In this document: piece by piece, positions 3,041-37,161 of the stretch | How the letters are laid out: every line of letters starts with the position of its first letter | Numbering within the stretch: the stretch's first letter is position 1 | NCBI GenBank assembly: GCA_963807455.1 | Contig: CAWECS010000010.1 | Coordinates: 31,524-95,523 of the forward strand | Reading direction: 5' to 3' | Origin: an uncultured Gammaproteobacteria bacterium | GTDB lineage: Bacteria; Pseudomonadota; Gammaproteobacteria; JAADHQ01 | DNA length: 64,000 nt | The notes under the pieces: generated by a model | Told to the model about the DNA's origin: nothing | The model's input: only the letters and a program-made list of their open reading frames with translations | Database searches by the model: none | Made by a program: the position numbers and the translations under genes

Positions 3041-3669
3041 GTTCTGTATTGAGACTTGCTATCAAAAAACTCATCGTTCAGATACTCAGCGACAGCCAGC
3101 ATGGTAGCGGCCGATGTACCCAGCTGGATATTCCTCATACTTTTTACATTGCTAACGATGGTTTCATCAATCAACAAGTCCGGCTTGGCAGTCCAGGCTT
3201 GATAGGCTTGTCGTTGCTGAGTACTACCAACAGCAATACATTCCGGATAGGCTGCCGGATAAAGACTTTCTTTTTGTCCGCGATCGGCATTTCCAACAGC
3301 GGCATATATTTTACAATGGGTATTGGCAAGAATTTCAAGTGCAGCCTTGACACTTGAGTTCGGTTTCATAAGACCTAATGGCAACACAACAACGTCAGCA
3401 TAGAGCTCCGCAGCCCAAACCAGCCCTCGTGCAAACGCCTGCGGTGAGCCAGCATTGGTGTCAGCAATCACTTTGCCCATGCTAACCTTAACTGTGCCTT
3501 TAAGGTTCTTCGACAAAATTTTCAACATAGATGAACCATGCGAAGCCGAATCTTCCAGGAACGGTTCATTGCAAAAAGTTTGCATGTAGCCACGCTCAAG
3601 ATTGAGATTATCCTGTTCTGACCAGTTTGCGCCGGTATCCAGCATAACTACATGGGGTACTTTAGCCAT
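3034..3669 (-). CDS. Minimal subtilisin-like (S8) serine peptidase with no signal peptide or pro-domain
   Basis: Asp/His/Ser triad motifs appear in subtilisin order (VVMLDTG, SASHGSS, GTSAATMLAVAEY). Likely start at the internal ATG at 3669, preceded by GGGAGAAAG. The 3' end overlaps the nnrS 3' end convergently by 7 nt. Confidence 0.55.
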   Translation of the reverse strand: MAKVPHVVMLDTGANWSEQDNLNLERGYMQTFCNEPFLEDSASHGSSMLKILSKNLKGTVKVSMGKVIADTNAGSPQAFARGLVWAAELYADVVVLPLGLMKPNSSVKAALEILANTHCKIYAAVGNADRGQKESLYPAAYPECIAVGSTQQRQAYQAWTAKPDLLIDETIVSNVKSMRNIQLGTSAATMLAVAEYLNDEFFDSKSQYRTY

Positions 3670-4153
3670 TCTTACTTTCTCCCTGAGAATATGATTTGGC
3701 ATTAACATAGATAATGGCTATTACACATTTCTAAACCGATATCTCCTTGTTTGTATCATTATATTGTCATGAACTTACAAATGACTTATTTAAATATATA
3801 TTAGCATAATCTAATATTTACTTCACTGGCAAACAAAATAGGGTTCGAACACCCTTACTGTGGATTCAAACCAACCCGTGTTCAAGTGAATAAAACACAT
3901 CGAAAACGTTAATATTCACCACTAAACACCAAAAGCACTATTCTACTTTTATTGTATGGTTTTTGGCAATAAATTGCCTGTGTTATCACCTAATCATCCA
4001 TTAATTAGCAAAAGAACAGGACGAAAATCAATAATTGGGCTATTATTCCCAATAATAGTGATGGCAGTCACAGAATTCAATAGCCACATTCTAAATAATT
4101 AAGCCCATAGCGTGATTCGGCCGCTACCACTATAAGCCCAATTAAATTTTATT

Positions 4154-5047
4154 ATGTCCACAACAAACACTGACACTTTACAAAACAATTTCGGAAAAAT
4201 TAATCCGAGAAGTATTAGCACTAAAAAAACGCTAGGTACGCGCGTATTCTTTGGTTTGATGTTTTTTGCCATTATTTACGGCTGGCTCAAACATGATGAT
4301 TTTTATTTATCCGCTGAAAGCGGCTTTGGATACTATCTGGGTATAGCCGGTGGTATCAGCATGCTGGTGCTACTGCTCTACCCCATCAGAAAGAAAGTCA
4401 GCGCCCTGAGAAATTTTGGACCTATCAGGTATTGGTTCAAAGCGCACATGGCTCTCGGCATTATCGGCCCAACACTGATTCTTTACCATGCTAATTATAG
4501 TCTTGGTTCCATCAATAGCAATGTCGCTCTCCTGTGTATGATTGTTGTCTCATTGAGTGGATTAGTAGGTCGTTTCATCTATACCCGTATTCATTATGGT
4601 TTGTATGGAGAAAAAATGACCCTGGCAGATTTGAAAGCAGACCTGGAAAAATCCCGATTAGACATAAACAAGCAATTTCTTTCATTCCCGGATATACAGG
4701 AGCAACTCAATCAGCTCGAAGCCATGGTGGCAAGAAGACGTAATTTTCTGGCACAAATAATAGTTATACCTGTGATCGCAATACGGATTTATTTTCGTCG
4801 TAAAAAAATCAAACGAACTTTGAAACAAGACCTGAAAAATAACAAAACCAGGCTAAACGATATAAATATGGATTTGTTAAAAGCATCCCTGCAAACCATC
4901 TATAACTATATTGAAACGATCCGACGTCTCGGACAACTGATGACCTATGAAAGACTATTTTCACTTTGGCATATTTTGCACCTGCCATTATTTATTATGC
5001 TGGTGATAACCGGGATCATTCATGTATTTGCTGTACATATGTATTAA
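4154..5047 (+). CDS. Integral membrane protein with 4–5 TM helices and paired His in the helices; possible b-type cytochrome or quinol-interacting anchor of the cytochrome cluster.
   Basis: 297 aa. Helices carry KAHMALGIIGPTLILYH and WHILHLPLFIMLVITGIIHVFAVH. A ~110-aa charged coiled-coil region lies between TM3/4 and the last TM. First gene after a 445-bp AT-rich spacer and directly upstream of the multiheme cytochromes. Confidence 0.4.
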   Translation: MSTTNTDTLQNNFGKINPRSISTKKTLGTRVFFGLMFFAIIYGWLKHDDFYLSAESGFGYYLGIAGGISMLVLLLYPIRKKVSALRNFGPIRYWFKAHMALGIIGPTLILYHANYSLGSINSNVALLCMIVVSLSGLVGRFIYTRIHYGLYGEKMTLADLKADLEKSRLDINKQFLSFPDIQEQLNQLEAMVARRRNFLAQIIVIPVIAIRIYFRRKKIKRTLKQDLKNNKTRLNDINMDLLKASLQTIYNYIETIRRLGQLMTYERLFSLWHILHLPLFIMLVITGIIHVFAVHMY

Positions 5048-5086
5048 AGAAGATCTTAAATCGTTGCAATAGAATGTTTAAGATCA

Positions 5087-6644
5087 ATGGATTCGGTTAT
5101 GAAAACGATTTTCGTGATAATGATGCTACTTGTAGCACCCTGTTTGTTTGCAGGCGCATTGGAAACACTGATGATGCCCGGGAAGCTGATTCAGCAACAT
5201 GAAAAATATGAGATTAAATGCGAAAACTGTCATGAAGTTTTCAGCAAAAAGAAACAGACGCGATTATGCAGGCAATGTCATGAGGAAGTTGATAAGGACA
5301 TAAAAGCAGAAAAAGGATTTCATGGAAGAATACCTAACATAAACAAAATTGAGTGCAATGCATGCCATACGGACCACAAAGGTAGAAATATCGATATTGT
5401 GAAACTGGACAAACAAACATTTGATCACGACAAGACTGATTTTAACCTAAAAGGAAAACATCAGTTTATCGCCTGTGATAGCTGTCATCAGCAGAAAAAG
5501 TACAGAGACACAAGCTCTCAATGCTACTCCTGCCATAAACAAAGTGACATTCATCACGGACGACTTGGAAAAAAATGCCAACAATGTCATTCCTCGGAAA
5601 GTTGGCTAGCAGCAGAATTCGATCACGAAAAGACAGACTTCAAGCTTAGAGGAAAACATAAAAAAACCAATTGTAACAATTGCCATATAAATCAGGAATA
5701 CAAAAAAACCCCTACACAATGCCATCAGTGCCATATAACCAAAGATATACATAACGGCATTTTTGGAAAAAAATGCGGCGATTGTCATAACACCAAACAA
5801 TGGGACGATTGCTGTATTTAATCATGACAAACAGACCGACTATAAACTGTCAGGCAAGCATCGTGACATTCAATGTGAATCCTGCCACCGTAATAATCCA
5901 TACCTGCATAAAACACCCAGCCAATGTAGCAAATGTCACAAAGACGAAGATGTGCATCAGGGTGTATACGGGCAGCAATGCCACTCGTGTCATTCAAGCA
6001 AAAACTGGCAGTCAATACATTTCGATCATAACCGTGATACTGACTTCAAGCTGAATAATAAGCATAATCTTACGCGTTGTGACAGTTGCCATAGGAGCAA
6101 CCCCTATAAAAACAAAACCGTGAGAAGCTGTTACTCTTGCCATAAACCAGATGACAAGCACCAGGGATCACAAGGAAAACAATGTGAGAATTGTCATAAT
6201 GATAAAAGCTGGTCGGACAAGGTAGCGTTTGATCACGATATTTCCAACTTCCCGCTGATTGGCTTACATGCCTCGGTTGCCTGTGAAGGTTGCCATATAG
6301 ACACTCACTACCGTAAAACCCCAAAGAATTGCAATGACTGCCATCAACAGGATGATGTCCACAAAGGTATGTTCAGTGAGAAATGTAATGATTGCCATAA
6401 CCCCAATGCCTGGAGTCGCTGGCAATTCGATCACAATACACAAACTGATTATCATTTAGAAGAATCGCATGAGAATCTGGAATGTCATGCCTGTCATTTA
6501 GTTGACCAGAAAATGACTAAACCGGATCAATTTTGTAATAGCTGCCATGCTAATGATGATGAGCATAATGGAAGTTTTGGTATCCAGTGCGACCGCTGCC
6601 ATACACAAGAGTCTTTCAGCATCATAAAAATGTCAGGCCATTAA
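5087..6644 (+). CDS. Periplasmic multiheme cytochrome c, about 21 CXXCH, of the paired/doubled-CXXCH (cytochrome c3/c7-like) module type. Split in this sequence by a +1 frameshift near 5809.
   Basis: Track ORFs 5087–5821 and 5763–6644 overlap in different frames. Both halves carry the same repeated unit W-x2-A-x-F-D/N-H-x2-T-D-F/Y-x-L-x-G-K-H-x5-C-x2-CH. Removing one T from gaTTgct restores ...KQWDDAVFNHDKQTDYKLSGKH... across the junction. N-terminal signal peptide present. Confidence 0.8.
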
Positions 6645-6656
6645 CATCAGCACTAA

Positions 6657-8247
6657 ATGGAGAAAACGATGAATATAAAATGGAAAAGAATAATACTCGT
6701 TAGCCTGTTGTTACTACCGGGAATAGCTTCATCTGCTGATACTTCAAAGCCTTTTGATCATTTTAATACCGGTTACCCGCTCGAAGGTGCTCATATGCAA
6801 GTAGAGTGTGAAACTTGCCATGTCAGAGGCATTTTTAAAGGAACACCAACACAATGTTCAGGTTGCCACAGTGCGGGCAGCACCATCAGTGCCAGCAAAA
6901 AGCCCTCTCATCATATTCAAAGTAATGAGAATTGTGGCGATTGTCATACCGACAAGAATTGGTCATCCGCACGAATGGATCATTCTTCTGTCACGGGTTC
7001 CTGTTTGACTTGTCATAATGGTACTACCGCTACGGGCAAGCATGCGCTGCATGTTCAAAGTAATAATACCTGCGAGGACTGCCACACCAGTAGCGCCTGG
7101 ATTCCCGCGCGCTTCGACCATAGTTCGGTCACAGCCACTTGTTCGACTTGCCACAATGGCACCACCGCCACCGGTAAACATGCCACGCATATCCAGAGCA
7201 ACAACACCTGTGATGATTGCCATACCAGCAGCGCCTGGATTCCCGCGCGCTTTGATCATACCAACATTACCGCCGCCTGCTTCTACCTGTCACAATGGCA
7301 CGACTGCCACCGGTAAACATGCCACGCATATCCAAAGCAACAACACTTGTGATGATTGCCATACCAGTAGCGCCTGGATACCTGCCCGCTTTGATCATAT
7401 TAATATTACAGCAGCCTGCTCTACCTGCCACAATGGCACGACGGCCACGGGTAAAAATCCGACACATATCCAGGCCAACAATACCTGTGATGACTGCCAC
7501 ACGACCAATGCCTGGATCCCGGCACGTTTTGACCACACCAACATTACCGCCGCCTGTTCTACCTGTCACAATGGCACCACGGCCACGGGTAAAAATCCAA
7601 CACATATCCAGTCAAACAATGTTTGCGATGATTGTCATACCACCAACGCCTGGATTCCAGCGAGATTCGATCACAATGCAGTCACGGCTGCGTGCTCTAC
7701 CTGCCATAATGGCACCACGGCCACGGGTAAAAATGCGACACACATCCAGACCAATAACACTTGCGATGATTGCCATACCACTACCGCCTGGATTCCGGCG
7801 AGATTCGATCACAATGCAGTCACGGCACCATGCTCTTCATGCCACAACGGTCAACAAGCTACGGGCAAGTCAAGTAGTCATTTCATCACCAGTCGACAGT
7901 GCGATAACTGCCATCGTAATACTAACTGGACGCCCAGTATTTTTACTCACGCAACAATGAATTATCCTGGCGACCATGGCGTTTCTCTAAATTGCATCGA
8001 TTGTCATACCGGCAATAACGAAACAGTTAACTGGAAAAATGCCGCTTACAAACCTGACTGTGCTGCATGCCATAGTGGTGATTTTAAATCTGGCCCGCAT
8101 AAAAAATATGAGAACCCGGATACCACTTATACTGTCAGTGAATTACGAGACTGCACAAGTAGCTGCCATATCTATACCAACAGCACTTTAACAACAATTA
8201 AAGAAAACAGGAATAGAGAACACTCTGTTACAAATAGAGAATTCTAG
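6657..8247 (+). CDS. Periplasmic multiheme cytochrome c, about 19–20 CXXCH, built from seven tandem 46-aa dihaem modules. Split in this sequence by a +1 frameshift near 7281.
   Basis: Track ORFs 6657–7316 and 7018–8247 lie in different frames. Repeat unit: ARFDHxxxTAxCSTCHNGTTATGKxxTHIQSNNTCDDCHTxxAWIP. The third repeat reads tgcTtctacc where all other copies read tgctctacc; the extra T breaks the frame. Signal peptide present. A CX3CH-like motif (CTSSCH) lies near the C-terminus. Confidence 0.8.
6960..7860 (+). repeat. Seven tandem ~138-bp repeats, about 85–95% nucleotide identity, inside the cytochrome gene
   Basis: Near-identical blocks recur at ~7050, 7188, 7320, 7460, 7598 and 7740 (for example catgccacgcatatccagagcaacaacacctgtgatgattgccatacc...). 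This also produces several long antisense and out-of-frame artefact ORFs in the track. Confidence 0.8.
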
Positions 8248-8253
8248 ATAACA

Positions 8254-8694
8254 GTGTTAGCACAAATTAAAAAAATGGATACGACGAGTTTAGCAATGTA
8301 CAAAGGATTTATTCTGGCTTTAGTCCTATGTAATGCTCCAGACTTGCATGCAGAGCCCCTGATAGACCATGTGAATAATGAGGTACAGAATAACCAGGAA
8401 ATTGTAGAAATTATTTTCAATACCCCGGTACAGTACCTTTACCACACACCAAAATCTGGCACGAAAACCATGTTGCTTGGTTTTTATATTCACCCATCAT
8501 GGAAGCAGAGCAGATCCTGGCACAGGCCGATATCATTCAAGCGCACCAAATACTTGCAAAGCATGGATATATATTCTGAACAGGGATTCAACCCGCATCT
8601 ATATCTTGAGTTTAATACCTTTGTGAATATTCAAGTACAACCGAGGAAGAACCTTCGTGGTTTTGTTTTAACACTAAGTGAACAAGAAAAATAA
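8254..8694 (+). CDS. Small lipoprotein-like protein, paralogous to the N-terminal domain of the downstream beta-barrel protein
   Basis: 146 aa. ...CNAPDLHAEPLIDHVNNEVQNNQEIVEIIFNTPVQYLYH... aligns with ...CIAITQPIIDHVDFNESAESIDIVLTFTLPVSYLSH... of the 819-aa protein. Confidence 0.5.
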   Translation: MLAQIKKMDTTSLAMYKGFILALVLCNAPDLHAEPLIDHVNNEVQNNQEIVEIIFNTPVQYLYHTPKSGTKTMLLGFYIHPSWKQSRSWHRPISFKRTKYLQSMDIYSEQGFNPHLYLEFNTFVNIQVQPRKNLRGFVLTLSEQEK

Positions 8695-11137
8695 TAAAAT
8701 GATCTCTACCAGGAAGCATTTAATAACTGTTTTGGCGTTCTTTTTAATGCTCTCTGCAAACAATACCTGCATAGCCATCACTCAGCCCATTATTGATCAT
8801 GTGGATTTTAATGAAAGCGCTGAAAGCATTGATATCGTCCTGACTTTTACCCTGCCCGTAAGTTATTTAAGTCATTTTCCTGCCTCTTCAGGAAAACAAC
8901 TGGATATTATGACTTTACCGATTGCTAATAGCGATGATCAAAAGCAAGCTGTAAATACGCCTCAACGACTGGCATTCACTGCCAATGCTTCAAATCCATT
9001 ACAACTGATACGCTATGAACCTAATAACCCTGCCGGTAAAGTACTCTCTTTGCTTTTCAATTCCACGACAAAATTCTCGGTACCGGCTCAACAGGAACCC
9101 AACGTAATCACGATCAGGTTATTAAAAAAAATAAAACTAAAGACATCTGAACCGGACAAACAGACGCCTGTCACTTTGGAAGACAGTGACAACTTTAAAT
9201 ACCTTATCAATTTAGTGTCGTCTCAAGATACCATCAAGCCATTTACGCACACAGATTACCCCTACCTGAAGCCATACCTGATTTATACAACCCGCTTTTC
9301 TATTGATTCAGTTCAATGGAACCGTATCAGACTTGGTTTCTTCCGAACCAAGAATGAAGCACAAACACAACTCAAACATGTTTTAAAGGACTTCCCTCGT
9401 GCCTGGGTTGACAGGGCAAAAGACGAGGAAAGAGAACACATCCAACCCTGGCTATTTGCTCTGGCAAGAAATAATAATCAGATAGCCCTGGCACAGACCG
9501 TACAGGTAAAACCCGAGAGACCAACACTCATTACAACGAAAAGCCAGCAATTATTCGCTGATGCTAAAAAAAATATAATCAATGGCGATTATCGCAAGGC
9601 AATTTTGATTCTTACCAAGTTATTAAATCTGCCTGAGAATGAATCAACTGAAGCAGCACAGGAATTGATAGGTGTTGCGCGAGAGAAAAATCGGCAAATT
9701 GCACATGCAATTGCCGAATACAAAAACTATCTTAAAAGATATCCCAAAGGGGAATTCCAGCACCGTGTAAAACAACGCCTGGATGGCCTTACCAATGCAC
9801 GTAGAACATCCAGAAAAAAATTACGCAAAGCTAAAAAACGTACTGGCGAAACGCCCTGGCAAGTCTATGGCACTGTATTTCAATTCTATCGACGGGATGT
9901 AGACACGACAGAATCCAATGATGCCGTCCTTAACTCCTCATTGGATACCGATCTGTCCCTCTCAGCCAGAAAACGTACTAAATCGCTGGACATCAGAACA
10001 CAACTTACCGGTAGCTATCAATATAACCTTGAAGAGAGCAATGAAAATGAATTCCGTGTCAGCTCACTTTATGTTGATGCTGCTGATCGCAAACGCAACT
10101 GGAATGCACGCATGGGTCGACAATCCCAGAACACGGGTGGTGTATTGGGAAGATTCGATGGAATCACACTGGGTTACCGCTTAAGCCCGAAATGGAAACT
10201 CAATGCCGTCACCGGCTTTCCTGTTGTTATCTCTTCCTCGAACCAGTTTCAAACGGACAAGGTTTTTTACGGTATGAGTCTGGATGCGGGCACATTTAAT
10301 AAATACTGGAACGCGAGCACTTTTATTATCAAGCAAACGGCAAATGATCTGGATGACCGAACAGCCGTGGGCGCAGAACTACGTTACCTGCATCCTAAAA
10401 CCACTGTATTCGGATTACTAGATTATGATATTGATTACAATTCTCTAAATATAGCCCAGCTTATTGCCAATGCCAGATTGCCTTTCGACACATCTATTAA
10501 TCTCGTCGCCGACTATCGAAATGGCCCCATTTTAACTACCAGCAATGCATTACAAGGTCAAACCAGCACAACACTGGAAGAGCTTCTATTAACTTATACA
10601 GAAGACGAAATTAAACAACTGGCCAAAGACAGAACCACTGTATTTCGCTCGGTTAGTGGCACGCTCAGCAAACCATTAACAGAAACGCTGCTACTCAGTC
10701 TGGACCTGGCAGCCTCACATCTTGAATCAAGCCCGGCTTCAGGTGGAATCGAGGCAACACCGAGTACCGGGATAGAATATTTTTACGGCGCCCAGCTTAT
10801 CGCCAATAGCATCTTCAAGAAAGGAGATACCTCACTGTTTGGAATCAGGTATGCTGATACTTCATCTTCTGACACAGTAACATTATCCATTAACAGTCGT
10901 TACCCCTATAAAAAAGACTGGCGCTTCAACCCCCGTATACGTGTTGACAGTCAAACACGCAATGATGATTCAACCATTCTTAAATTTCGGCCTTCATTCA
11001 GAGTTGACTATCGCGCCATGCGCAAAGTTAAAGTTGAGCTCGAACTCGGTTATGAGTATTCCAACATAGACGACACCTTTGGCACCCGAACGGAATCTAA
11101 TTATTTTATTAACATGGGCTATATCGCTGATTTCTGA
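8678..11137 (+). CDS. Outer-membrane beta-barrel protein with an N-terminal AMIN-like domain, a SPOR-like domain and TPR repeats
   Basis: 819 aa with signal peptide. Possible start at 8699. SPOR-like segment YLIYTTRFSIDSVQWNRIRLGFFRTKNEAQTQLKHVLKDFPRAWV. TPR-like region around residues 290–370. The C-terminal ~450 aa have alternating beta-strand character and end in the outer-membrane-type terminal motif ...GYIADF. Confidence 0.6.
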   Translation: MNKKNNKMISTRKHLITVLAFFLMLSANNTCIAITQPIIDHVDFNESAESIDIVLTFTLPVSYLSHFPASSGKQLDIMTLPIANSDDQKQAVNTPQRLAFTANASNPLQLIRYEPNNPAGKVLSLLFNSTTKFSVPAQQEPNVITIRLLKKIKLKTSEPDKQTPVTLEDSDNFKYLINLVSSQDTIKPFTHTDYPYLKPYLIYTTRFSIDSVQWNRIRLGFFRTKNEAQTQLKHVLKDFPRAWVDRAKDEEREHIQPWLFALARNNNQIALAQTVQVKPERPTLITTKSQQLFADAKKNIINGDYRKAILILTKLLNLPENESTEAAQELIGVAREKNRQIAHAIAEYKNYLKRYPKGEFQHRVKQRLDGLTNARRTSRKKLRKAKKRTGETPWQVYGTVFQFYRRDVDTTESNDAVLNSSLDTDLSLSARKRTKSLDIRTQLTGSYQYNLEESNENEFRVSSLYVDAADRKRNWNARMGRQSQNTGGVLGRFDGITLGYRLSPKWKLNAVTGFPVVISSSNQFQTDKVFYGMSLDAGTFNKYWNASTFIIKQTANDLDDRTAVGAELRYLHPKTTVFGLLDYDIDYNSLNIAQLIANARLPFDTSINLVADYRNGPILTTSNALQGQTSTTLEELLLTYTEDEIKQLAKDRTTVFRSVSGTLSKPLTETLLLSLDLAASHLESSPASGGIEATPSTGIEYFYGAQLIANSIFKKGDTSLFGIRYADTSSSDTVTLSINSRYPYKKDWRFNPRIRVDSQTRNDDSTILKFRPSFRVDYRAMRKVKVELELGYEYSNIDDTFGTRTESNYFINMGYIADF

Positions 11138-11315
11138 CTCTCTCCCAAGAGCTATATTCACTGGACTATACGCCTTAAACTTGGCATGATTAAGCTATTC
11201 ATTTTATCACTCGATGGCGATGAATTTTCCACGCCTGAAACATGATTAAGACATAAAATAAATATGTTATTCAATCTTAATATGAACATAATCTAATGCC
11301 AGGGAACGAATCAAC

Positions 11316-12503
11316 ATGATACTCAAACCCATAACAGAGTTCTTGCGACTGGAAGCATCGGGCGGTATTTTACTCCTGATCGCTGCAATCCTTGCTGTCA
11401 TTGCCGAAAATTCGGCTGCCAGGGGTTTATACGAGTCCCTTCTCGGTACCCCACTTGAGATAAGAATCGGCCAATTTGAAATTGCCAAGCCATTACTACT
11501 CTGGATTAATGATGGCTTGATGGCTATTTTCTTTTTTCTTATTGGGCTAGAAGTTAAACGCGAAGTTCTGGATGGTGAATTATCAGAACCATCAAGAATT
11601 GTATTACCCGTGATCGCCGCTATCGGTGGCATGGCCATGCCTGCTCTGATTTACAGCTATATTAATTGGGGAAACCCGATGGCCATGAGAGGCTGGGCCA
11701 TTCCTTCGGCCACCGATATTGCATTCGCATTGGCCGTACTGGCATTACTCGGTAGTCGTATTCCTAACACATTAAAGTTATTCCTGATGACCTTGGCTAT
11801 TGTCGATGATCTGGGCGCAATTGTGATTATCGCGATTTTTTATACTTCCGATTTATCGGTATCATCCCTGATCGTGGCCGGGCTTGCTATTGCTGGTTTA
11901 TATGCACTGAACCGCAAAGGCGTATTATCGCTAGCACCCTATTTGTTCATCGGCCTTATTTTATGGGTAGCCGTACTAAAATCTGGTGTTCACGCCACTT
12001 TGGCCGGTGTTCTGATTGCCTTGTTTATTCCTTACCGGAAAATGGAAGGTGAACAGAAAACACAGCTGGAACATCTGGAACATGACCTGCATCCGACTGT
12101 TATCTATGGTGTTCTGCCACTTTTTGCATTTGCCAATACCGGTATTTCATTTGATGGTCTTACGCTACAATCATTTCTAAATCCGGTGCCCCTGGGTATT
12201 GCAGCGGGTTTATTTTTTGGCAACCAGCTAGGTGTTTTTGGTTTCAGCTGGCTGGCCGTCAAGGCAGGGATCGCCCAATTACCGGCCGGTGCAAACTGGT
12301 TGCAAATATACGGCTTGTCAATGGTCTGCGGTGTTGGCTTTACCATGAGCTTATTTATCAGCTCATTGGCATTTGAGCAAGGGGCAACAGAATATGCCAT
12401 TGATGATCGACTGGGTATTATTATTGGCTCGATTGTATCTGCCACTCTGGGTTACCTGACCTTACGCTTTGCTTCCAGCAACAAAACAGGCGACAATACC
12501 TGA
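11316..12503 (+). CDS. nhaA: Na+/H+ antiporter NhaA
   Basis: 395 aa. Strong family-level similarity throughout, including the conserved TM4/TM5 region (...ATDIAFALAVLALLGSRIP..., ...LAIVDDLGAIVIIAIFYT...). Confidence 0.9.
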   Translation: MILKPITEFLRLEASGGILLLIAAILAVIAENSAARGLYESLLGTPLEIRIGQFEIAKPLLLWINDGLMAIFFFLIGLEVKREVLDGELSEPSRIVLPVIAAIGGMAMPALIYSYINWGNPMAMRGWAIPSATDIAFALAVLALLGSRIPNTLKLFLMTLAIVDDLGAIVIIAIFYTSDLSVSSLIVAGLAIAGLYALNRKGVLSLAPYLFIGLILWVAVLKSGVHATLAGVLIALFIPYRKMEGEQKTQLEHLEHDLHPTVIYGVLPLFAFANTGISFDGLTLQSFLNPVPLGIAAGLFFGNQLGVFGFSWLAVKAGIAQLPAGANWLQIYGLSMVCGVGFTMSLFISSLAFEQGATEYAIDDRLGIIIGSIVSATLGYLTLRFASSNKTGDNT

Positions 12504-24884: not shown

Positions 24885-25101
24885 CTAGAATCTTACGCTT
24901 GCCAAAATAATATATAGATAAAGTGACGGCCTCAATTGATCGATGCAACACATGCATTATATAATATTTTTTGCATCTATTTAAAATAGTCCGAACCAAT
25001 CACTTTTTTCTGCGGCTTCAAGCTTACCTGCCAATGCCTGATTGCCTGACTGGCGAGCTAAATCAGCAGCCGTGTGTTTATCTTTATTGCGCATAGAAGC
25101 A

Positions 25102-26898
25102 TTAGCGCCATTCTTCAATAATAAGTTTTATTATGGCATCATTGCCTTTTTCAGCAGCATACATTAAAGCGGTATAGCCGTGTTTGTTGGTATTATTTAC
25201 ATCCACTTTCTTTTGCAAAAACAGTTTCACCAGCTCAAGCCGCCCGGATTTTGAGGCAATCATTAATCCGTTATTTCCACTACTGGTGGTTTGATGTGCA
25301 TCCGCGCCTGCTTTCAGTAATAAATTAATACTGGCCTTGTCTCCACGGGCAGTCAATTCAGTCAGCAAAGTGGCGCCGTCCAGATTGCGTTGATTAATAT
25401 CTGTTTTGTTTTTCAGTAATACTCTGGCCGCTTCACGATGACCGGCAAGCAGTGCATACCATAATGCATTCTGTTGTTGCTTGTCTTGTAGCAGTGAGTC
25501 GGCGCCACAAGCTAACAATGCCGTGACAACACGGGTATGCCCCTGATCGGCTGACAACATTAATGCTGTCAAACCATCTTTTCTGCGCGAATTTATGCTG
25601 CCTGGAGTTTTCCTGCATAATGTAGAAACGACTTGTTTATGACCATGACGTGATGACAACATTAATGCTGTTTGCCCAACCTGGTCTTTTTGTGCTGGAT
25701 TCGCACCATGTGAGAGCAGGTGCGCTACTACACTGGCATGGCCAGCACGTGCTGACAACATTAGCGCGGTCAACTGTTGCTTGGATGCCTGATTAACATT
25801 AGCGCCTTTATTAATGAGTTTATTTACCATACTCATGCGCCCCTTCCATGCTGCGCGCATTAAAGCTGTGTAACCTTCCTTGTCTACTGCATTCAGGTTT
25901 TGCTGTAGATTGATCTGCTCGTTAAAAATTGCTTGTTCGCCTGTCCATGCGGCCAGCATTAATAGCGTCCAGCCTTTATACGGGCCGTTAGTGATTAAAG
26001 CCTGCTGTTGCTTTATCCGTTGCTGTTGACTGACCCGTGGCTTTTGACTCTTTTTATTATCTACATAGGTTTGCAGTAAATCCGCTACTTTTTTATGTTT
26101 GTACTCAACGGCCAGTTGATGGGCCGTTAGATTATCTGCATTTTTGAAGCGCACATTTGCTCCGGCACTCACTAACAGGCTAACTATTGGGTAATCACCC
26201 TGTCTGGCTGCAAGCATTAACGCCGTCATACTGTCATTATTACGCGCATTCAGGTTTGCTTTATAACTAATCAGTAATTTAACCATGCGCTGATGACCTT
26301 GTATCACCGCGATTTGCAGCAAACTGTTACCTTTTTTATCGGCGGCATTACTATTTTCACCCTGTCGCAACATTGATCTGGCGCGTTCAACATCACCCTT
26401 TTTTACGACTTGTGGTAATAAACGATTGTTGCTGCCGGTTGACAGGCTGCCCTGGGTAATTTGCTTTTGCAGTTTTAGTAATGCCTGTTTTGCATGGCGG
26501 TTATTTTGAGCGGCAGATTTTTGATACCAGGCACTGGCTGCTTGCAGATCCTGTTTTACACCAAGACCTTGTTGGTACATTTGACCCAGTTGGTATTGGG
26601 ATTTCGCATGACCCTGCTGGGCCGCGCGCCGATACCAATCTGCAGCCTTATCATGACTACGACTCACGCCAGTTCCATTGCGATAAAATGTTGCCAGTTT
26701 GTACTGCGCGTCAACATTATTATTTTTTGCCAATGGCTGGCAAAGTCTGAACGCCTCTTTAAAATCTTTCAGTCTGATGGCCTGATTGACTGCCTCCAGA
26801 TCATTGGCAAGCAACAAACTGGAGGTGCACAGTAACAACAAACCTGCTATCCACTGAATCATTCTATTACTCGGTTCCATACTTGGTTTCAACTTCAA
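25102..26898 (-). CDS. Secreted Sel1-repeat plus ankyrin-repeat protein
   Basis: Signal peptide. Four or more Sel1/TPR-like repeats (AQYKLATFYRNGTGV..., SQYQLGQMYQQGLGV...). About 10 ankyrin repeats follow (GNSLLQIAVIQGHQRMVKLLISYKANLNARN..., repeating TALMLAAxxGH...LLxxGAxVN). Confidence 0.8.
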   Translation of the reverse strand: MKLKPSMEPSNRMIQWIAGLLLLCTSSLLLANDLEAVNQAIRLKDFKEAFRLCQPLAKNNNVDAQYKLATFYRNGTGVSRSHDKAADWYRRAAQQGHAKSQYQLGQMYQQGLGVKQDLQAASAWYQKSAAQNNRHAKQALLKLQKQITQGSLSTGSNNRLLPQVVKKGDVERARSMLRQGENSNAADKKGNSLLQIAVIQGHQRMVKLLISYKANLNARNNDSMTALMLAARQGDYPIVSLLVSAGANVRFKNADNLTAHQLAVEYKHKKVADLLQTYVDNKKSQKPRVSQQQRIKQQQALITNGPYKGWTLLMLAAWTGEQAIFNEQINLQQNLNAVDKEGYTALMRAAWKGRMSMVNKLINKGANVNQASKQQLTALMLSARAGHASVVAHLLSHGANPAQKDQVGQTALMLSSRHGHKQVVSTLCRKTPGSINSRRKDGLTALMLSADQGHTRVVTALLACGADSLLQDKQQQNALWYALLAGHREAARVLLKNKTDINQRNLDGATLLTELTARGDKASINLLLKAGADAHQTTSSGNNGLMIASKSGRLELVKLFLQKKVDVNNTNKHGYTALMYAAEKGNDAIIKLIIEEWR

Positions 26899-28166
26899 TT
26901 CCGACTTCTTTCAACATGGGAGTAGGTAAGATACCGCCTGCACTGACAATAATGGCATCATTATCAATTTCGATGCGATCACCTTGCTGCTCGATTTCGA
27001 CTGAATTTTTATGTATTTGCTGAACATTGGATTTAAACATCACCCTTAGTCGACCCGCTTTTTCAGCTTGCTCTACTTTTTGTCTGTTTTTTTCCTTGGC
27101 ACGCGCAAAGGCTTCACTACGATAAGACAAGGTCACCGTAGTTCCCTGCTGTTCAGCAATACTGGTGGCAGCCTCCAGTGCGCTGTCACCACCACCCACG
27201 ACCAATACATGCTGGCCTTTGTATTGCTCAGGATCGATCAAGCGATACACCACCTTGGGTAGTTCCTCCCCCGGTACACCGAGTTTCCTAGGGCTGCCAC
27301 GTCTGCCAATCGCGAGCAATACCTTTGCAGTTGTGTAACTCGCTTTGTTTGTTTTGATTTCAAAACCTTGATCTGTGGGTGTTATCGATCAGCATGTTTT
27401 CCTGGTAGTTAATTTTAATGCCGGTTTTTTTCTCGACCTCCTGCCACATTTCCAGCAGGGCCTCTTTGGTCGTTTCCCTTACTTTGACTTTACCTATAAT
27501 GGGCAACTGCATGGGTTGGGTCATGACAATTTTTCCGCGTGGAAAATTAAATACGGTACCCCCCAGACTTTCCTGTTCGAGTGTCAGGTATCTGAGCCCT
27601 TTTTGCTTTGCTCCCAGAGTAGCCGAGAATCCTGCGGGTCCGGCACCAATGATGATGACATCATAATCACCCGATCCATTTTTGTTATTGGCAATAGCTT
27701 CCAGGGCCTGGCGTCCCTGTTCGACTGCATTTCGAATCAAACCCATGCCACCCAGTTCGCCGGCGATATAGATACCCGGCACATTGGTTTGAAAATCCGG
27801 ATTTACCTGCGGAATATCCACCCCGCGTTTTTCTGTCCCGAACACCAGTGTAATCGCATCGACTGGACAAGCTGTTTTACACGCACCATGACCAATGCAA
27901 TGCGATGGGTTGATCAGGTGAGATTTCCCTTGAATCAGTCCGAGCACATCTCCTTCGGGGCAGGCTGTAATGCAGGATGCACAACCAATACATTTGTGCA
28001 CTTCAATGACCGGGTGCAAAGATGCCGGCTCTGCAAGCCCTTCTGCTTCTGCTTGTTTTAATTTGGACAGGTTGCCTGACTGCTTACGCGTCTGATAAAT
28101 CGCATACAAGGCGATAAAAATCACCGGTAGTGAATAAAATACCCATTGAATCTGATCGGCATCCAT
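26867..28166 (-). CDS. Membrane-anchored FAD/NAD(P)-dependent oxidoreductase with an N-terminal 2x[4Fe-4S] ferredoxin domain, split by an apparent 1-nt frameshift near 27390
   Basis: Track ORFs 27360–28166 (TM helix, two Cx2Cx2Cx3CP motifs, FAD fold DYDVIIIGAGPAGFSA...) and 26867–27319 (NAD fold VLVVGGGDSALEAA...) are in different frames. The downstream frame, read upstream of its annotated start, encodes the protein-like stretch SITPTDQGFEIKTNKASYTTAKVLLAIGRRG; removing one nucleotide near 27390 joins it to the upstream ORF (...KINYQENML-SITPT...), so the two pieces form one gene. Confidence 0.6.
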
Positions 28167-28506
28167 TATGTGATTTCTTTGTGATTAAAAACTGCCTTCA
28201 TGCACTCATTGTAATGCAAGAAACCATGCAATATCGTTGCAGCTATCACATAAGAGCAAGCAGCAGGAACTGCTGCTCGCACAGGAAGCTTAGTATTTAA
28301 CCTGTAGACCGGAATTATCATTAATACCATATAATTAATATTGTTTATGGTGAATAACAGGGTATCTATAGCGCCTGCCAGAAAATATTATCATCTACTT
28401 ATATTTATAGCTAAATATATGTTTAAACAAAGATTATAGTGATTTATCCTGCGATTGAACCATGTTATCCTTGCATGTTCTTATACCTTATATATTAAAC
28501 ACCCGC

Positions 28507-29148
28507 ATGGACTTGGCAATACAGGATACAACTTCACTCAAAGCTGACCGGCTCGCCTGTGTACGCAGTGAAATCGAGCTTTTTCGAGAATTAAGCTTTG
28601 AACTACTACCCGGTCAGCTGATCCAGATCGAGGGCGCCAACGGCTGTGGAAAAACCAGCCTGCTGCGTATTCTGTGTGGCCTGAGTCGGGCCGCCGAAGG
28701 GGAAGTATTGTGGCGCAGTCGAGAGATTGAACACTGTCGCCAGGAGTATTATGCCGAAATGACCTATGTCGGTCACAATAATGGTCTCAAAGCTAACCTG
28801 ACCTGTGAAGAGAACCTGAAAGTGTCCGCACTGCAGAATCACTTGCGAGCAGAGCATGATATTGAACAGGCGCTGGAAAAAATGGGGCTGGAAGAGCTCA
28901 TCGACGAATTTGCTGGTAAGTTATCAGCAGGCCAGCAACGGCGGCTGGCTTTAGCGCGCCTGTTATTGACCGATGCACCGCTATGGATACTCGATGAACC
29001 CTTTACAGCACTGGACCTTGCCAGCCGTGAACTGATGGAAGGTATTTTTGATCAACATTGCCAGACAGGCGGCATGATCATACTAACCACGCATCACCAC
29101 ATGACGATTCCACATACAGAAGTTAAATTACTGAAAATAAACGCATGA
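28507..29148 (+). CDS. ccmA: Cytochrome c biogenesis ATP-binding export protein CcmA
   Basis: Walker A GANGCGKTSLLR and ABC signature LSAGQQRRLALARL. Start taken at ATG 28507 by homology to CcmA N-termini. Confidence 0.85.
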   Translation: MDLAIQDTTSLKADRLACVRSEIELFRELSFELLPGQLIQIEGANGCGKTSLLRILCGLSRAAEGEVLWRSREIEHCRQEYYAEMTYVGHNNGLKANLTCEENLKVSALQNHLRAEHDIEQALEKMGLEELIDEFAGKLSAGQQRRLALARLLLTDAPLWILDEPFTALDLASRELMEGIFDQHCQTGGMIILTTHHHMTIPHTEVKLLKINA

Positions 29149-29825
29149 CCAATACCAGCACACATGCCCTGAAAACCTTGTTATGGCGTGACTTTACCCT
29201 TGCAGCCAGAAATAAATCCGAATGGATGAACCCGCTGCTGTTTTTTATTTTTGCTGCGGTACTATTTCCGTTAGGCATAGGTCCTGATACGGTGATTTTA
29301 AAACAAATAGCACCAGGCATTATTTGGGTTGTAGCCCTATTGGCGGCATTGCTATCTCTGGATACGCTATTTCGTGCAGATTACGAGGATGGCAGCCTGG
29401 AACAACTAACGCTATCGCCCTATTCATTTTCCACCTTGATACTGGGGAAGATATCAGTGCACTGGCTGTTGACCGGACTGCCGTTGATTTTACTCTCGCC
29501 TTTACTGGCCACTTTTTTTCACCTGGATGCCGCTGCAACTTTTATCCTGATGCAAACTCTATTACTTGGAACACCTGTTTTAAGTCTGGTTGGCGCAATA
29601 GGCAGTGCATTAACAGTCGGATTAAAACGTGGCAGTATGCTGATTTCACTGCTGGTATTACCATTATATGTACCGGTGTTGATATTTGGTGCCAATGCTG
29701 TTTCCGCCTCGACCGCCGGTCTTGATATTAGCGGACATTTAATGTTGATCGGCTCGTTACTGGTGCTGGCCATTACGTTGGCACCTCTGGCAACCGCAGC
29801 TGCCCTGCGCGCAAGTATAGGATAA
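29145..29825 (+). CDS. ccmB: Haem exporter protein CcmB
   Basis: 226 aa, 6 TM helices, CcmB family. ATGA overlap with ccmA. Confidence 0.85.
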   Translation: MTNTSTHALKTLLWRDFTLAARNKSEWMNPLLFFIFAAVLFPLGIGPDTVILKQIAPGIIWVVALLAALLSLDTLFRADYEDGSLEQLTLSPYSFSTLILGKISVHWLLTGLPLILLSPLLATFFHLDAAATFILMQTLLLGTPVLSLVGAIGSALTVGLKRGSMLISLLVLPLYVPVLIFGANAVSASTAGLDISGHLMLIGSLLVLAITLAPLATAAALRASIG

Positions 29826-29828
29826 GTT

Positions 29829-30569
29829 ATGTTACAAACCATTACTAAACTGGCCTCGTTAAGAAATTTTTATTTTTTCTGCGGAAAATTATTACCCTGG
29901 TTTGCCTGGCCTACATTGATTTTAATGCTTGTCGGCCTGTACTGGGGACTGGTCGAGGCACCCGCTGACTACCAGCAGAAAGATAGCTATCGCATTATCT
30001 TCATACATGTGCCGGCAGCATGGATGTCACTGTTTGTTTATATGGTGATGGCTACGTCTGCTGCCGCTTCATTGATCTGGAAGACCAAGGCATCCGAAGT
30101 GGTTGCTAATAGTTGCGCACCAGTTGGTGCTGCATTTACTTTTCTGGCGCTGGCTACTGGCTCTTTATGGGGTAAGCCCATGTGGGGTACCTGGTGGGAA
30201 TGGGATGCGCGCCTGACGTCGGAACTGGTATTGCTATTTTTATACCTGGGTTATATAGCATTGCAATCGGCCTTTGAAGACAAGCGTACAGCGGCCAGGG
30301 CTACCGCCATACTGGCCATTGTCGGTGTCGTTAACATTCCTATTATTCATTACTCGGTAGAATGGTGGTACACGCTGCATCAGGGCCCCACCGTACAGGT
30401 CATGAAAAATAAACAGGCTATGGATATCAGCATGCTGATTCCGTTGCTGATTATGGCGACCGCTTTCAAGTTTTATTTTGCTACCGTGCTATTGATGTTT
30501 AGCCGGAACGAAATCCTCGAAAGAGAGTCCCATACAAAATGGGTGCAAGAAGAGAGAGAACGATTATGA
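29829..30569 (+). CDS. ccmC: Haem exporter protein CcmC
   Basis: WWD-domain signature (GKPMWGTWWEWDARL) and conserved His. Confidence 0.9.
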   Translation: MLQTITKLASLRNFYFFCGKLLPWFAWPTLILMLVGLYWGLVEAPADYQQKDSYRIIFIHVPAAWMSLFVYMVMATSAAASLIWKTKASEVVANSCAPVGAAFTFLALATGSLWGKPMWGTWWEWDARLTSELVLLFLYLGYIALQSAFEDKRTAARATAILAIVGVVNIPIIHYSVEWWYTLHQGPTVQVMKNKQAMDISMLIPLLIMATAFKFYFATVLLMFSRNEILERESHTKWVQEERERL

Positions 30570-30733
30570 CTCTGTCAGAATTTTTTTATATGGACGGTTA
30601 CTACCTGTATGTCTGGGTCTCATATGGCCTGGCCCTGGTAGTGATGCTGGCCCTGTTTATCAACCCTATTCGACGTAAACGCCAGTTATTGAAACAACTG
30701 GGACGAAAAAAGAGACGAGGACAACGTATATGA
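30566..30733 (+). CDS. ccmD: Haem exporter protein CcmD
   Basis: About 55-aa single-TM protein (MTLSEFFYMDGYYLYVWVSYGLALVVML...). ATGA overlaps with ccmC and ccmE. Confidence 0.6.
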   Translation: MTLSEFFYMDGYYLYVWVSYGLALVVMLALFINPIRRKRQLLKQLGRKKRRGQRI

Positions 30734-31179
30734 CTCCAACGCGTAAACGCAGACTGATGGTTGTGTCCCTGATTATTCTGGGTGTTGGCACGGCCGCCGC
30801 TCTGGCACTGACTGCCTTCAATAAAAACCTGATGTTTTTCTATTCACCCAGCCAGGTTGCTGCCGGTGAGGCACCAATGAACCGATCATTCAGAGTCGGC
30901 GGCATGGTCAAGAACAACAGTCTTGTTCGTGACAAGGACGGCCTCACTGTTCGCTTTGTTGTGCATGATAACGTCAAGGAAGTCAGCATTGCCTATAAAG
31001 GTATTCTTCCGGACTTGTTCAGGGAAGGTCAGGGTATCGTGGCTCAGGGCAAGCTGAATTCCGAGAAACAATTCATTGCCGATGAAGTATTGGCCAAACA
31101 TGATGAAAATTATATGCCGCCGGAAGTCGCTGCAGCGATGAAACCTATAGGCATCGACAAAACACCCAAAGGTCAATAA
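30730..31179 (+). CDS. ccmE: Cytochrome c-type biogenesis haem chaperone CcmE
   Basis: N-terminal TM anchor and OB fold. Haem-binding His context (...FREGQGIVAQGKL...). Confidence 0.85.
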   Translation: MTPTRKRRLMVVSLIILGVGTAAALALTAFNKNLMFFYSPSQVAAGEAPMNRSFRVGGMVKNNSLVRDKDGLTVRFVVHDNVKEVSIAYKGILPDLFREGQGIVAQGKLNSEKQFIADEVLAKHDENYMPPEVAAAMKPIGIDKTPKGQ

Positions 31180-31182
31180 TCC

Positions 31183-33141: not shown

Positions 33142-33671
33142 AATTACGTTCACTGATACCACTGATCGCTTTTCTGGTACTGGTTATTTTTCTCGCCATT
33201 GGACTGACACGTGATCCAAAAAAGATTCCATCGCCACTGATCGGCAAACCATCGCCGCAATTTGAATTACCCGCTGTTCTGCAACCGGGACAGAAAGTCA
33301 GTCAGAGTGATTTTCTCGGTAAGGTGGTGTTATTCAATGTCTGGGCATCATGGTGCGTTGCCTGTCGACAGGAACATCCGTTATTGGTGGAATTTGCAAA
33401 AAACCATAACACTCCCGTCTATGGCCTTAACTACAAGGATCAACGCACTGATGCGATTCGTTGGTTGCAGGCTTTCGGTAATCCTTACATCAGCAGTGCC
33501 TATGATGTCACCGGAACAGCAGGAATAGACTGGGGTGTATACGGTGTACCGGAAACTTTCCTGATCGATAAAAAAGGCATCATACGTTACAAACAAATCG
33601 GCCCGGTAACTGAAGACGTCATCAGCAATGAAATACTGCCACTCATCCGGAAACTGGAACAGGAATCATGA
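33138..33671 (+). CDS. ccmG: Thiol:disulfide interchange protein CcmG/DsbE
   Basis: Thioredoxin fold with WCVAC active site (WASWCVACRQEHP). N-terminal anchor. Confidence 0.85.
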   Translation: MKLRSLIPLIAFLVLVIFLAIGLTRDPKKIPSPLIGKPSPQFELPAVLQPGQKVSQSDFLGKVVLFNVWASWCVACRQEHPLLVEFAKNHNTPVYGLNYKDQRTDAIRWLQAFGNPYISSAYDVTGTAGIDWGVYGVPETFLIDKKGIIRYKQIGPVTEDVISNEILPLIRKLEQES

Positions 33672-34150
33672 AATCCATAAACATCGCCTTGTTAGCTTTT
33701 TTATTGTCTCTGATCTCGGTCAATGCCTATTCGGCATTCAATACCTACCAGTTTGACGATCCGATCAAGAAACAGCGCTTTGATAAATTGATCAATGAAT
33801 TACGTTGCACCGTTTGTCAGAACCAGACCATTGCCGGTTCCAATGCCGACCTCGCTAAAGATCTACGCGACAAAGTCTATAAAATGGTCAATGAAGGAAA
33901 AACAGAACAAGAGATCAAGGACTTTATGGTCGACCGTTTTACCGACTTTGTTTTATATAATCCTCCCTTGAAAGAAAGCACCTATCTGTTATGGTGGGGA
34001 CCCTTTTTTTTACTGGTGTTTGCCGTCATCATGCTGATTGTACAAATACGTAAACGCACGCAAGCACCATCCATCGACATCAACCCGCAGCAACATGAGC
34101 GCATTCAGCAACTGCTGAAGACAGAACAAAAGGATAACAACAATGATTAG
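33668..34150 (+). CDS. ccmH: Cytochrome c-type biogenesis protein CcmH
   Basis: LRCxxCQ motif (LRCTVCQNQTIAGSNADLAKDLR). C-terminal TM. Confidence 0.8.
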   Translation: MKSINIALLAFLLSLISVNAYSAFNTYQFDDPIKKQRFDKLINELRCTVCQNQTIAGSNADLAKDLRDKVYKMVNEGKTEQEIKDFMVDRFTDFVLYNPPLKESTYLLWWGPFFLLVFAVIMLIVQIRKRTQAPSIDINPQQHERIQQLLKTEQKDNNND

Positions 34151-36548: not shown

Positions 36549-36579
36549 AGCAAAGCCCTTCCTCTCTATTTAATAATAG

Positions 36580-37161
36580 TTATTTAAAACGTAACGCAGA
36601 CATGCTGTCATTTATTATTTCCTTTACCTTGGCATAGTCGTTATATAAAAACACAATATAGGCATCGGCATGATTGTCCTTGTGCAATGTCAGCATCAAG
36701 GCCTGACGATAGTGTGCTGAATAGCTGTCACTCACATCAAGCACCGCGGCAGCGGCCCAGCCAGCATTGAAGCGTTGCTGTGATTGCTCAGTCGGGTATT
36801 CCTTTCTGGGACTGTGACCACCATCCGATAATTGCGTGACGATCGTCTCAAACATCATATTAAACAAATGGTTTGGTTCGGGCGCATTATTATGCGGGTC
36901 TTCATAGTCGACCTTGATGCGCTTGATCGGCCTTATACTGTACCTGATCTCCATCAAATCACTAACATGACGCAGTGCATATTCATACGGCAGTACATCA
37001 TCCCTGGCGGGTGGTATTTCCTTAAACCCCGGTATCTCCGTCATTCTAAGTCCCGACTCCTGCAGTAAAGCAGCAAAGTCCAGCGTGTTTTTCGCCGCGC
37101 ATAACTGAACTGAAGAAACCAGAAAAACAAATCCGAAAAATAATTTGAATGAACTTGCCAT
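36580..37161 (-). CDS. Secreted hypothetical protein
   Basis: Start at internal ATG 37161 (MASSFKLFFGFVFLVSSVQLCAA signal peptide). The upstream extension in the track overlaps the preceding gene. Confidence 0.5.
   Translation of the reverse strand: MASSFKLFFGFVFLVSSVQLCAAKNTLDFAALLQESGLRMTEIPGFKEIPPARDDVLPYEYALRHVSDLMEIRYSIRPIKRIKVDYEDPHNNAPEPNHLFNMMFETIVTQLSDGGHSPRKEYPTEQSQQRFNAGWAAAAVLDVSDSYSAHYRQALMLTLHKDNHADAYIVFLYNDYAKVKEIINDSMSALRFK

Follow-up and report, generated by a model that had tools for sequence, protein, structure and literature searches.

The DNA analysed here, hereafter the window, is a stretch of 64,000 nucleotides from an uncultured gammaproteobacterium (NCBI GenBank assembly GCA_963807455.1, contig CAWECS010000010.1, positions 31,524 to 95,523 of the forward strand), and all coordinates below are positions within it. 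At 6657-8247 lies a gene, which we call MHC2, for a protein of the multihaem cytochrome (MHC) type whose central part is built from tandem 138-bp repeats, each encoding a dihaem unit of 46 amino acids (aa). The gene stands in a cluster that resembles PCC3, a putative porin-cytochrome cluster, and the repeats, their evolution and the setting of the gene are the subject of this report. The gene and its parts are as follows:

6657-8247, + strand: MHC2, the repeat-bearing gene, counterpart of the PCC3 'extracellular MHC' (from open reading frames (ORFs), translation and family matches)
6657-6737, + strand: Sec-type signal peptide MEKTMNIKWKRIILVSLLLLPGIASSA (read from the translation)
6855-7001, + strand: degenerate first dihaem unit of 49 aa (match of the hidden Markov model of the unit at aa 67-114)
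7002-7139, 7140-7277, 7278-7416, 7417-7554, 7555-7692 and 7693-7830, + strand: six core 138-bp (46-aa) dihaem units (from Tandem Repeats Finder (TRF) and codon slicing)
7280-7282, + strand: one-base insertion breaking the MHC2 frame, on the first Cys codon of the third core unit
7831-7968, + strand: diverged last dihaem unit (46-52% DNA identity to the core units)
7969-8247, + strand: C-terminal triheme domain with two CXXCH motifs and one CX3CH motif (from conservation)

TRF, run on the window, delimits an array at 7068-7811 with a period of 138 bp, 5.4 copies, 81% matches and a score of 777, and scores the same array also at a period of 276 bp (884). The units were cut by codon, starting at the first Cys of each, and in the corrected frame this slicing gives seven units with a C..CHNG signature at a spacing of exactly 46 aa; the core unit at 7278-7416 contains the extra base. 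An earlier reading of the sequence alone had described a 138-bp tandem array of seven near-identical copies. TRF and codon slicing bear out the array, which is in frame; the near-identity does not hold. Six similar core units are accompanied by a diverged unit at each side. In every unit a pair of CXXCH motifs is accompanied by two conserved distal His residues, at unit positions 17 and 40; this would be the arrangement expected for two bis-His haems. Across 84 homologues the unit columns C, C, H, N, A, G, K, H, C, C, H, W, F and H are at least 90% conserved. The same sequence-only reading is upheld in seeing a 46-aa dihaem unit that builds a modular polyhaem protein, given two CXXCH motifs per unit and matches to Pfam Paired_CXXCH_1 and Cytochrome_C7 above their cut-offs. 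It took the unit for a compact variant of the paired-CXXCH module, of which the Paired_CXXCH_1 match stands and the compactness falls, since the unit has 46 aa and the Pfam model 41.

The GC content is 0.51-0.53 in the array against 0.39-0.42 in its flanks, and the interval 7001-8000 forms a local GC peak with strongly negative GC skew. A foreign origin or GC-biased conversion of the repeats was considered and set aside, as the GC is mostly accounted for by a Thr/Ala/Gly/Cys/His-rich composition and the use of ACC and GCC codons.

Corrected by removal of one base, MHC2 encodes a protein of 529 aa with a signal peptide, 19 CXXCH motifs and one CX3CH motif, and thus 20 haem sites, or one per 26 aa or so. 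The signal peptide has no lipobox Cys, and its cleavage site may be placed by the A-x-A rule. The CX3CH is invariant in the 84 homologues, as are the residues C238/C241/H242, C260/C263/H264 and C291/C295/H296 of the C-terminal triheme domain, a conserved element that is the signature of the family. The top Pfam match of MHC2 is Cytochrome_C7 (PF14522; 99.2 bits against a cut-off of 24.8), and Paired_CXXCH_1 (PF09699; 47 bits against 20.6) and Cytochrom_c3_2 also score above their cut-offs; NCBIfam yields no family at cut-off for any protein of the module. The orthologue in the related locus L083 (5936-7933) is intact and in a single frame.

Protein searches recovered more than 3,000 homologues of MHC2, of 350-925 aa, and scans of genomes and metagenomes recovered 160 loci, the genome loci lying in metagenome-assembled genomes labelled Alpha-, Gamma- and 'Delta'-proteobacteria, Nitrospirota, Nitrospinaceae and Omnitrophota. 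All orthologues share one plan, namely one N-terminal haem, n dihaem units and the conserved C-terminal triheme domain, with n ranging from 3 to 43 and the number of CXXCH motifs from 9 to 89. In a library of 1.84 billion proteins the C-terminal triheme domain is found in 180 clusters (50% identity), always at the C-terminus and in proteins of up to 2,916 aa. Giant members with this domain include P0425 (2916 aa), P0489 (2342 aa), P0444 (2110 aa) and the protein of locus L050 (2155 aa, 89 CXXCH). He et al. (2017; PMC5566968) gave haem counts as high as 85, a maximum that such giants may exceed.

The clade nearest to the window has 7 (the window), 7, 8, 9, 10, 12 and 14 units at strict 46-aa spacing, with MHC2 intact in all of its genes but that of the window. 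The counts 7, 8, 9, 10, 12 and 14 thus offer a natural series for testing the idea that unit number sets chain length. Several relatives have units that are 96-100% identical at the DNA level; hence recent unit duplication does occur in the family but not in the array of the window. The six core units of the window are each other's nearest neighbours, whereas the edge units are closest to edge units of other species: the first unit (6855-7001) is nearest to unit 0 of another species and to none of its own array, and the last (7831-7968) is nearest to the last unit of locus L030 and 78% identical to the last unit of L083. This pattern implies that turnover is confined to the interior of the array. 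The scans of genome and metagenome contigs returned no same-species copy of the locus.

The genes around MHC2 that enter the comparison with PCC3, and the further neighbours considered below, are these:

4154-5047, + strand: inner-membrane protein (IMP) of 297 aa, putatively a di-haem b-type protein (from motifs and hydrophobic segments)
5087-6644, + strand: MHC1, counterpart of the PCC3 'periplasmic MHC', in two ORFs (5087-5821 and 5763-6644)
8254-8694, + strand: small exported protein of 146 aa, kept in close relatives
8678-11137, + strand: outer-membrane protein (OMP) of 819 aa from a GTG start (from AlphaFold2 (AF2) and Foldseek)
24984-26898, - strand: Sel1 and ankyrin repeat protein with a signal peptide (Pfam Ank and Sel1), with a frameshift near 25114-25127
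26870-28166, - strand: membrane-anchored 2x[4Fe-4S] and FAD/NAD(P) oxidoreductase (Pfam Fer4 and Pyr_redox, split over two ORFs)
28462-35405, + strand: cytochrome c maturation genes ccmABC(DE)FGHI (from Pfam)

The IMP has WX3HX13H motifs at aa 94 and 272 and the sequence SGLVG at aa 135, and its hydrophobic segments fit five transmembrane (TM) helices. Both WX3HX13H motifs are present in 65 of 66 orthologues and SGXXG in all 66; neither Pfam nor NCBIfam has a match to the protein. The PCC3 IMP was described as a protein of about 300 aa with five TM helices, SGXXG on TM4 and WX3HX13H on TM3 and TM5 (He et al. 2017; PMC5566968). Both ORFs of MHC1 score as Cytochrome_C7/c3 in Pfam, and the corrected protein has 519 aa with 21 CXXCH motifs in seven triheme repeats of 66-68 aa. 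For the PCC3 periplasmic MHC the same authors gave about 21-27 haems in repeats, and their supplementary figure shows seven repeats of 66 aa with 21 haems for the Riftia symbiont. They further reported extracellular MHC repeats of 44-47 aa in L. cholodnii, aa:haem ratios between 22 and 39, and a porin whose beta-barrel has 22-42 strands, and Hoover et al. (2023; PMC10734462) gave 10-35 haems and linear AlphaFold models for the extracellular MHC.

The OMP is annotated in the source as a protein of 796 aa, and the GTG start at 8678 gives it a 17-nt overlap with the ORF of the 146-aa protein. Its AF2 model (mean predicted local distance difference test score (pLDDT) of 88) has a C-terminal barrel of about 22 strands (residues 395-818), preceded by a beta-sandwich, a SPOR-like alpha/beta domain and a TPR region. 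Foldseek returned 350 matches in the PDB at E<=1e-3, and every match among those listed is an outer-membrane barrel. In addition, there are weak BamD/YfiO-like TPR matches, the protein ends in ...GYIADF, and SPOR (PF05036) is annotated in many of its homologues. The 146-aa protein and the N-terminal beta-sandwich domain of the OMP are paralogous (BLASTP E=9e-7 to OMP residues 20-75). Of 87 loci, 69 retain the order IMP-MHC1-MHC2-OMP, and the remainder are mostly truncated contigs. The window therefore has the features by which PCC3 is recognised, namely an IMP, a periplasmic MHC, a second repeat-rich MHC, a barrel OMP and the clustering of these four genes.

The neighbourhood also extends beyond PCC3's four published components, among which neither the Fe-S flavoprotein nor the Sel1/ankyrin protein is found. 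The former has an N-terminal hydrophobic helix and is YpdA/TrxR-like at scores below the NCBIfam cut-offs; the latter is 48-71% identical to module-adjacent orthologues in loci L083, L085 and L086. Their homologues stand beside the module in 67 of 87 loci (Fe-S flavoprotein) and 47 of 87 (Sel1/ankyrin), directly adjoining it in L001, L002, L086 and L087. The ccm genes of the window are intact when compared with relatives, and ccm adjoins the module in L086 and L087. In a further relative (locus L168; GCA_947258755.1, contig CAMYJO010000016.1), whose CcmF is 86% identical, NnrS and a gene for 211 aa are followed by ccm within 7 kb; no PCC3-like module lies between NnrS and ccm there, and it may be absent or elsewhere in that genome. 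An Rfam scan of the window gave no match, and a promoter and terminator scan of 3600-11500 gave nothing above shuffled expectation.

We regard it as likely that the repeats form the extensible core of MHC2, a Sec-exported c-type multihaem cytochrome encoded in a putative porin-cytochrome cluster of the PCC3 type. A likely mode of action can be drawn from what is established for c-type multihaem cytochromes, MtrA among them. MHC2 would be exported by Sec and would have its haems attached by the Ccm system (28462-35405). Each 46-aa unit would carry two covalently bound, closely packed bis-His haems, at about 23 aa per haem, and a row of such units would give an unbroken haem chain whose length is set by the number of units, at about 1.6-2 nm per unit if the haems are spaced as in MtrA. 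Together, the IMP, MHC1, MHC2 and the barrel OMP would make up an electron path linking the inner membrane to the cell surface, or to points outside the cell. The array grows and shrinks as whole units are gained and lost in frame, with only the internal units turning over and the first unit, the last unit and the C-terminal triheme domain positionally conserved. Clusters of the PCC3 type are widespread, and if they are indeed electron conduits, the dihaem unit would set how far electrons are carried.

Several points weigh against this reading. The cluster was matched to PCC3 feature for feature, and to the reference proteins of Sideroxydans and Leptothrix by published descriptions alone. As late as 2025 a paper (PMC12442390) calls PCC3 'functionally unverified'. 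The AF2 model of MHC2 is of moderate confidence only, with a pLDDT of 75.5 overall and 59-75 in the units, and Foldseek found no match to it in the PDB. Among solved structures the best sequence match is a weak one to 6r2q_A (E=2.7e-5), which we take to be the MtrA chain of the MtrCAB complex, the displayed depositor name being 'Cystathionine beta-synthase'. The signal peptide and certain domain fusions, taken up below with the location of the protein, tell in the same direction. Lastly, MHC1 and MHC2 are both frameshifted in the window, and MHC2 may be non-functional here.

The sequence of the window at 7280-7282 is GCCTGCTTCTACC, in contrast to GCCTGCTCTACC or GCCTGTTCTACC in the other units and the closest orthologue. 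The two units that adjoin here are the most similar pair (88%), and the position is one at which TGC and TGT vary between units; the TGCTTCT of the window holds both variants. As assembled, MHC2 consists of two ORFs, 6657-7316 and 7018-8247, the first 88 codons of the latter being out of frame, so that the full protein cannot be made. A comparison of frames between the window and five related contigs found frame changes in exactly four genes of the window: MHC1 (5806/5808), MHC2 (7280/7282), the Sel1/ankyrin gene (25114-25127) and the Fe-S flavoprotein gene (27390-27442, against L085, L086 and L087). In MHC1 the insertion of 1 nt lies at about 5806-5807, as seen in tblastn with intact orthologues and also against L083. 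Every one of the four lesions is a net single-base (+1) insertion, with one lesion per gene, and about 24 other genes of the window (about 21.6 kb) are in a single frame relative to the relatives. Programmed +1 frameshifting was considered and appears unlikely, because no slippery or stall motif is common to the four sites and, by inspection, UGC UUC U cannot re-pair in the +1 frame. Elsewhere in the window the ORFs 53469-54878 and 54568-55560, both on the - strand, overlap by about 310 nt in different frames, and could represent a further frameshift or a spurious ORF.

Two explanations of these lesions, recent pseudogenisation and an error of assembly or polishing, carry about equal weight. 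According to the first, MHC2 and the surrounding module are being lost in this lineage, such that the frameshifts are real recent inactivations and the repeats a relic; we place this a little short of an even chance. All four frame changes fall in genes of the extended module, and by our own arithmetic the chance, by length, of all four falling in the roughly 10 kb of the module is about 0.01, which points to real decay. Furthermore, MHC1 and the flavoprotein gene have no DNA-level repeats that could cause consensus errors, MHC2 is intact in all six relatives examined, and the relative GCA_947258755.1 lacks the module between NnrS and ccm. However, apart from the single lesion in each gene there are no premature stops, and the branch leading to the window shows no excess amino-acid divergence in the IMP, MHC1 or the OMP. 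Moreover, four net +1 insertions resemble a technical mode of error, and the one in MHC2 combines two unit variants at the point where two repeats meet.

According to the second explanation, the frameshift, and perhaps also the copy number of seven, is an artefact in which reads from different units were merged, and the true gene is intact and may have more units; the prospect of this, too, is close to even without reaching it. The position of the extra base coincides exactly with the boundary between the two most similar units (88% identical), and the sequence there contains both alleles, as would be expected of merged reads. Likewise, arrays of this family often break assemblies: 38 of 80 metagenome contigs, some of them 16-26 kb long, stop within the array, and L085 breaks off in the last unit, which agrees with the earlier remark that the locus is easily mis-assembled. 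The unit count of the window is also the lowest in its clade (range 7-14), and the absence of a lineage-specific rate acceleration fits a functional gene. Against this, the frameshifts are clustered in module genes and not scattered across the window, and two of the four lie in non-repetitive DNA. In addition, differences of 12-34% between units suffice for unique placement of reads by most assemblers, and L087 likewise has seven units in an intact gene. In view of the frameshifts, the MHC2 of the window should for now not be counted as a functional gene.

The array also misleads gene prediction. Two sets of spurious ORFs lie within it, both taken from the ORF list:

6963-7259, 7267-7605 and 7612-7812, - strand: antisense artefact ORFs
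7295-7960, + strand: sense-strand artefact ORF

Together with the first 88 codons of 7018-8247 these confirm the expectation of long artefact ORFs on both strands. The antisense ORFs were rejected as real genes, having no homologues but the mirror image of the array and no family matches. In related loci, gene callers put antisense ORFs in place of the true MHC2 (L083, 6395-7660; L084, 875-2140; L086, 5428-6345; all on the - strand), and MHC1 is similarly replaced by an antisense ORF in L002 (7484-7801, - strand). Protein databases consequently under-represent the MHC2 family, and antisense gene calls and assembly breaks together cause surveys of multihaem cytochromes to undercount these genes.

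With regard to location, published predictions place the protein outside the cell (PMC5566968, PMC10734462), and the 22-strand barrel could let MHC2 pass. A different arrangement, which we hold to be rather improbable, is that MHC2 is not extracellular and instead acts in series with MHC1, either as a periplasmic wire tethered to peptidoglycan or by threading the barrel from the periplasmic side. In favor of this arrangement, the ordinary Sec signal peptide without a lipobox makes an extracellular location doubtful, and no type II secretion genes are found among the ORFs of the window scanned against Pfam. A peptidoglycan-binding SPOR domain (PF05036) is fused at the N-terminus to MHC2 in the family members P0009, P0018, P0044 and P0063, and the same RLGFF-type domain is present in the periplasmic part of the OMP (residues about 175-264). 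The fusion and the shared motif argue that at least part of MHC2 is periplasmic.

It is conceivable, though we would give such a combined scenario a rather low probability, that a seven-gene module of the PCC3 type, a 46-aa unit serving as a length ruler and the discarding of the module in the window are parts of one picture. The module may then add a membrane-anchored Fe-S flavoprotein and a periplasmic Sel1/ankyrin scaffold to the published components, and through the flavoprotein the haem chain could be connected to cytoplasmic NAD(P)H or ferredoxin. The dihaem unit would be a fast-evolving length ruler tuned to the thickness of the envelope or of a sheath, and in the window four of the seven module genes would have been struck by single-base insertions in the course of being discarded.

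To return to the repeats as the extensible core of MHC2, the divergence among units bears on the age of the array. The sequence-only reading had put adjacent copies at 85-95% DNA identity and had taken this for a sign of recent expansion. Measured identity among the six core units is 66-88% (adjacent pairs 75, 88, 78, 77 and 86%; median 67-74%), and that of the seventh unit to them is 46-52%. At the protein level the core units are 72-98% identical, and the differences between them are mostly synonymous, at third positions. Nei-Gojobori estimates between units give a proportion of synonymous differences (pS) of 0.42-0.98, corresponding to a synonymous divergence (dS) of at least 0.6 that is mostly saturated, and a ratio of non-synonymous to synonymous divergence (dN/dS) of at most 0.09. 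The non-repeat parts of MHC2 compared with L083, the closest available relative, have about 78% DNA identity and a pS of 0.51-0.78. As the divergence between units resembles that of these orthologous flanks, the youngest duplications are about as old as the split between the species of the window and of L083. The core units are thus old duplications under strong purifying selection, since near-saturated synonymous sites and low dN/dS indicate that their likeness is kept by selection on the protein and not by recency. Near-identical copies arising from recent unequal recombination or slippage, with a copy number varying among strains, are accordingly very improbable for this array: related species do differ in copy number and other family members (e.g. 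P0063) hold the near-identical units mentioned above, but the best pair in the window is only 88% identical, so that the identity claim is contradicted by the sequence itself, the pS values are like those from a relative of a different species, and two independent assemblies of one relative are 2 nt apart and have equal copy number.

Other parts of the window contain a second, unrelated cytochrome cluster (35475-40397, - strand) encoding an 801-aa multihaem protein, a TPR protein, a 197-aa protein and a Porin_4-type porin. The 801-aa protein is ExtM-like at 212 bits against a cut-off of 800, and all genes of this cluster are intact and 87-93% identical to those of GCA_947258755.1. Further on are two molybdopterin oxidoreductase clusters and an ATP sulfurylase gene (45013-49880, + strand; 58031-61509, - strand; 62108-63112, + strand), one of the clusters having Fer4_11 and DmsC-like subunits and the other lying beside a dihaem class I cytochrome c. 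These genes suggest a sulfur-oxidising, respiratory-versatile host.

Of the known systems, PCC3 is the closest (He et al. 2017, Front Microbiol 8:1584; Hoover et al. 2023, mSystems 8:e00038-23). It has the same four core genes in the same relative order, and shares with the window the motifs of the IMP, a partner cytochrome whose 21 haems lie in triheme repeats of some 66 aa, a cytochrome built from dihaem repeats some 46 aa long, a variable number of haems and a barrel. Low-complexity cytochromes made of repeat units with a haem site in each were already noted by He et al. (2017; PMC5566968), and the repeat-rich cytochromes and variable haem counts of PCC3 were likewise already described there. 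The present analysis adds a natural series of copy numbers, a wider set of conserved neighbours, the pitfalls of annotation and assembly, and the cluster of frameshifts. The window differs in that its host is an uncultured gammaproteobacterium that is probably a sulfur oxidiser (Sat and SoxY-neighbourhood relatives) and not a known iron oxidiser, in that its OMP has large periplasmic beta-sandwich, SPOR-like and TPR domains, and in that an extra small paralogous gene and two further conserved neighbours are present and this copy is frameshifted.

The periplasmic decahaem cytochromes of the MtrA/DmsE type (MtrCAB, PDB 6R2Q) are, like MHC2, low-complexity, haem-dense c-type proteins with bis-His-type spacing, and MHC2 would, as they do, serve as a wire inside or next to a beta-barrel. 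MHC2 differs in having 20 haems instead of 10 and an expandable tandem unit, and its family score lies below the cut-off: the DmsE/MtrA model TIGR03508 is the best NCBIfam match, with 35 and 64 bits for the two halves of MHC2 against a cut-off of 192.2, and the intact L083 orthologue scores 121 bits with it. The barrel partner of MHC2, with about 22 strands, has no sequence or specific structural match to MtrB. With the c7-type polymers of Geobacter (e.g. the dodecahaem GSU1996) MHC2 shares a modular principle, that of a small multihaem domain placed in tandem to give an elongated haem chain; the unit of MHC2 is a dihaem 46-mer, however, and theirs a triheme domain of about 70-75 aa. The likeness to nanowire haem chains proposed at first does not extend to membership of the Geobacter nanowire triheme family TIGR04257, with which MHC2 scores 19.5 and 29.2 bits against a cut-off of 40 and the L083 orthologue 39.6 bits. 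To the solved filament cytochromes (OmcS, OmcZ and OmcE) MHC2 has no sequence match at E<=1; among all solved structures only three chains matched. Finally, the N-terminal 38-40 residues of each MHC2 unit fit the 'doubled CXXCH' model (PF09699/TIGR01905; 23.3 bits with TIGR01905, just under its cut-off of 25.2), whereas the unit as a whole is longer, at 46 aa, and adds a W-x-P-x-x-F-D-H tail that would supply the second distal His.

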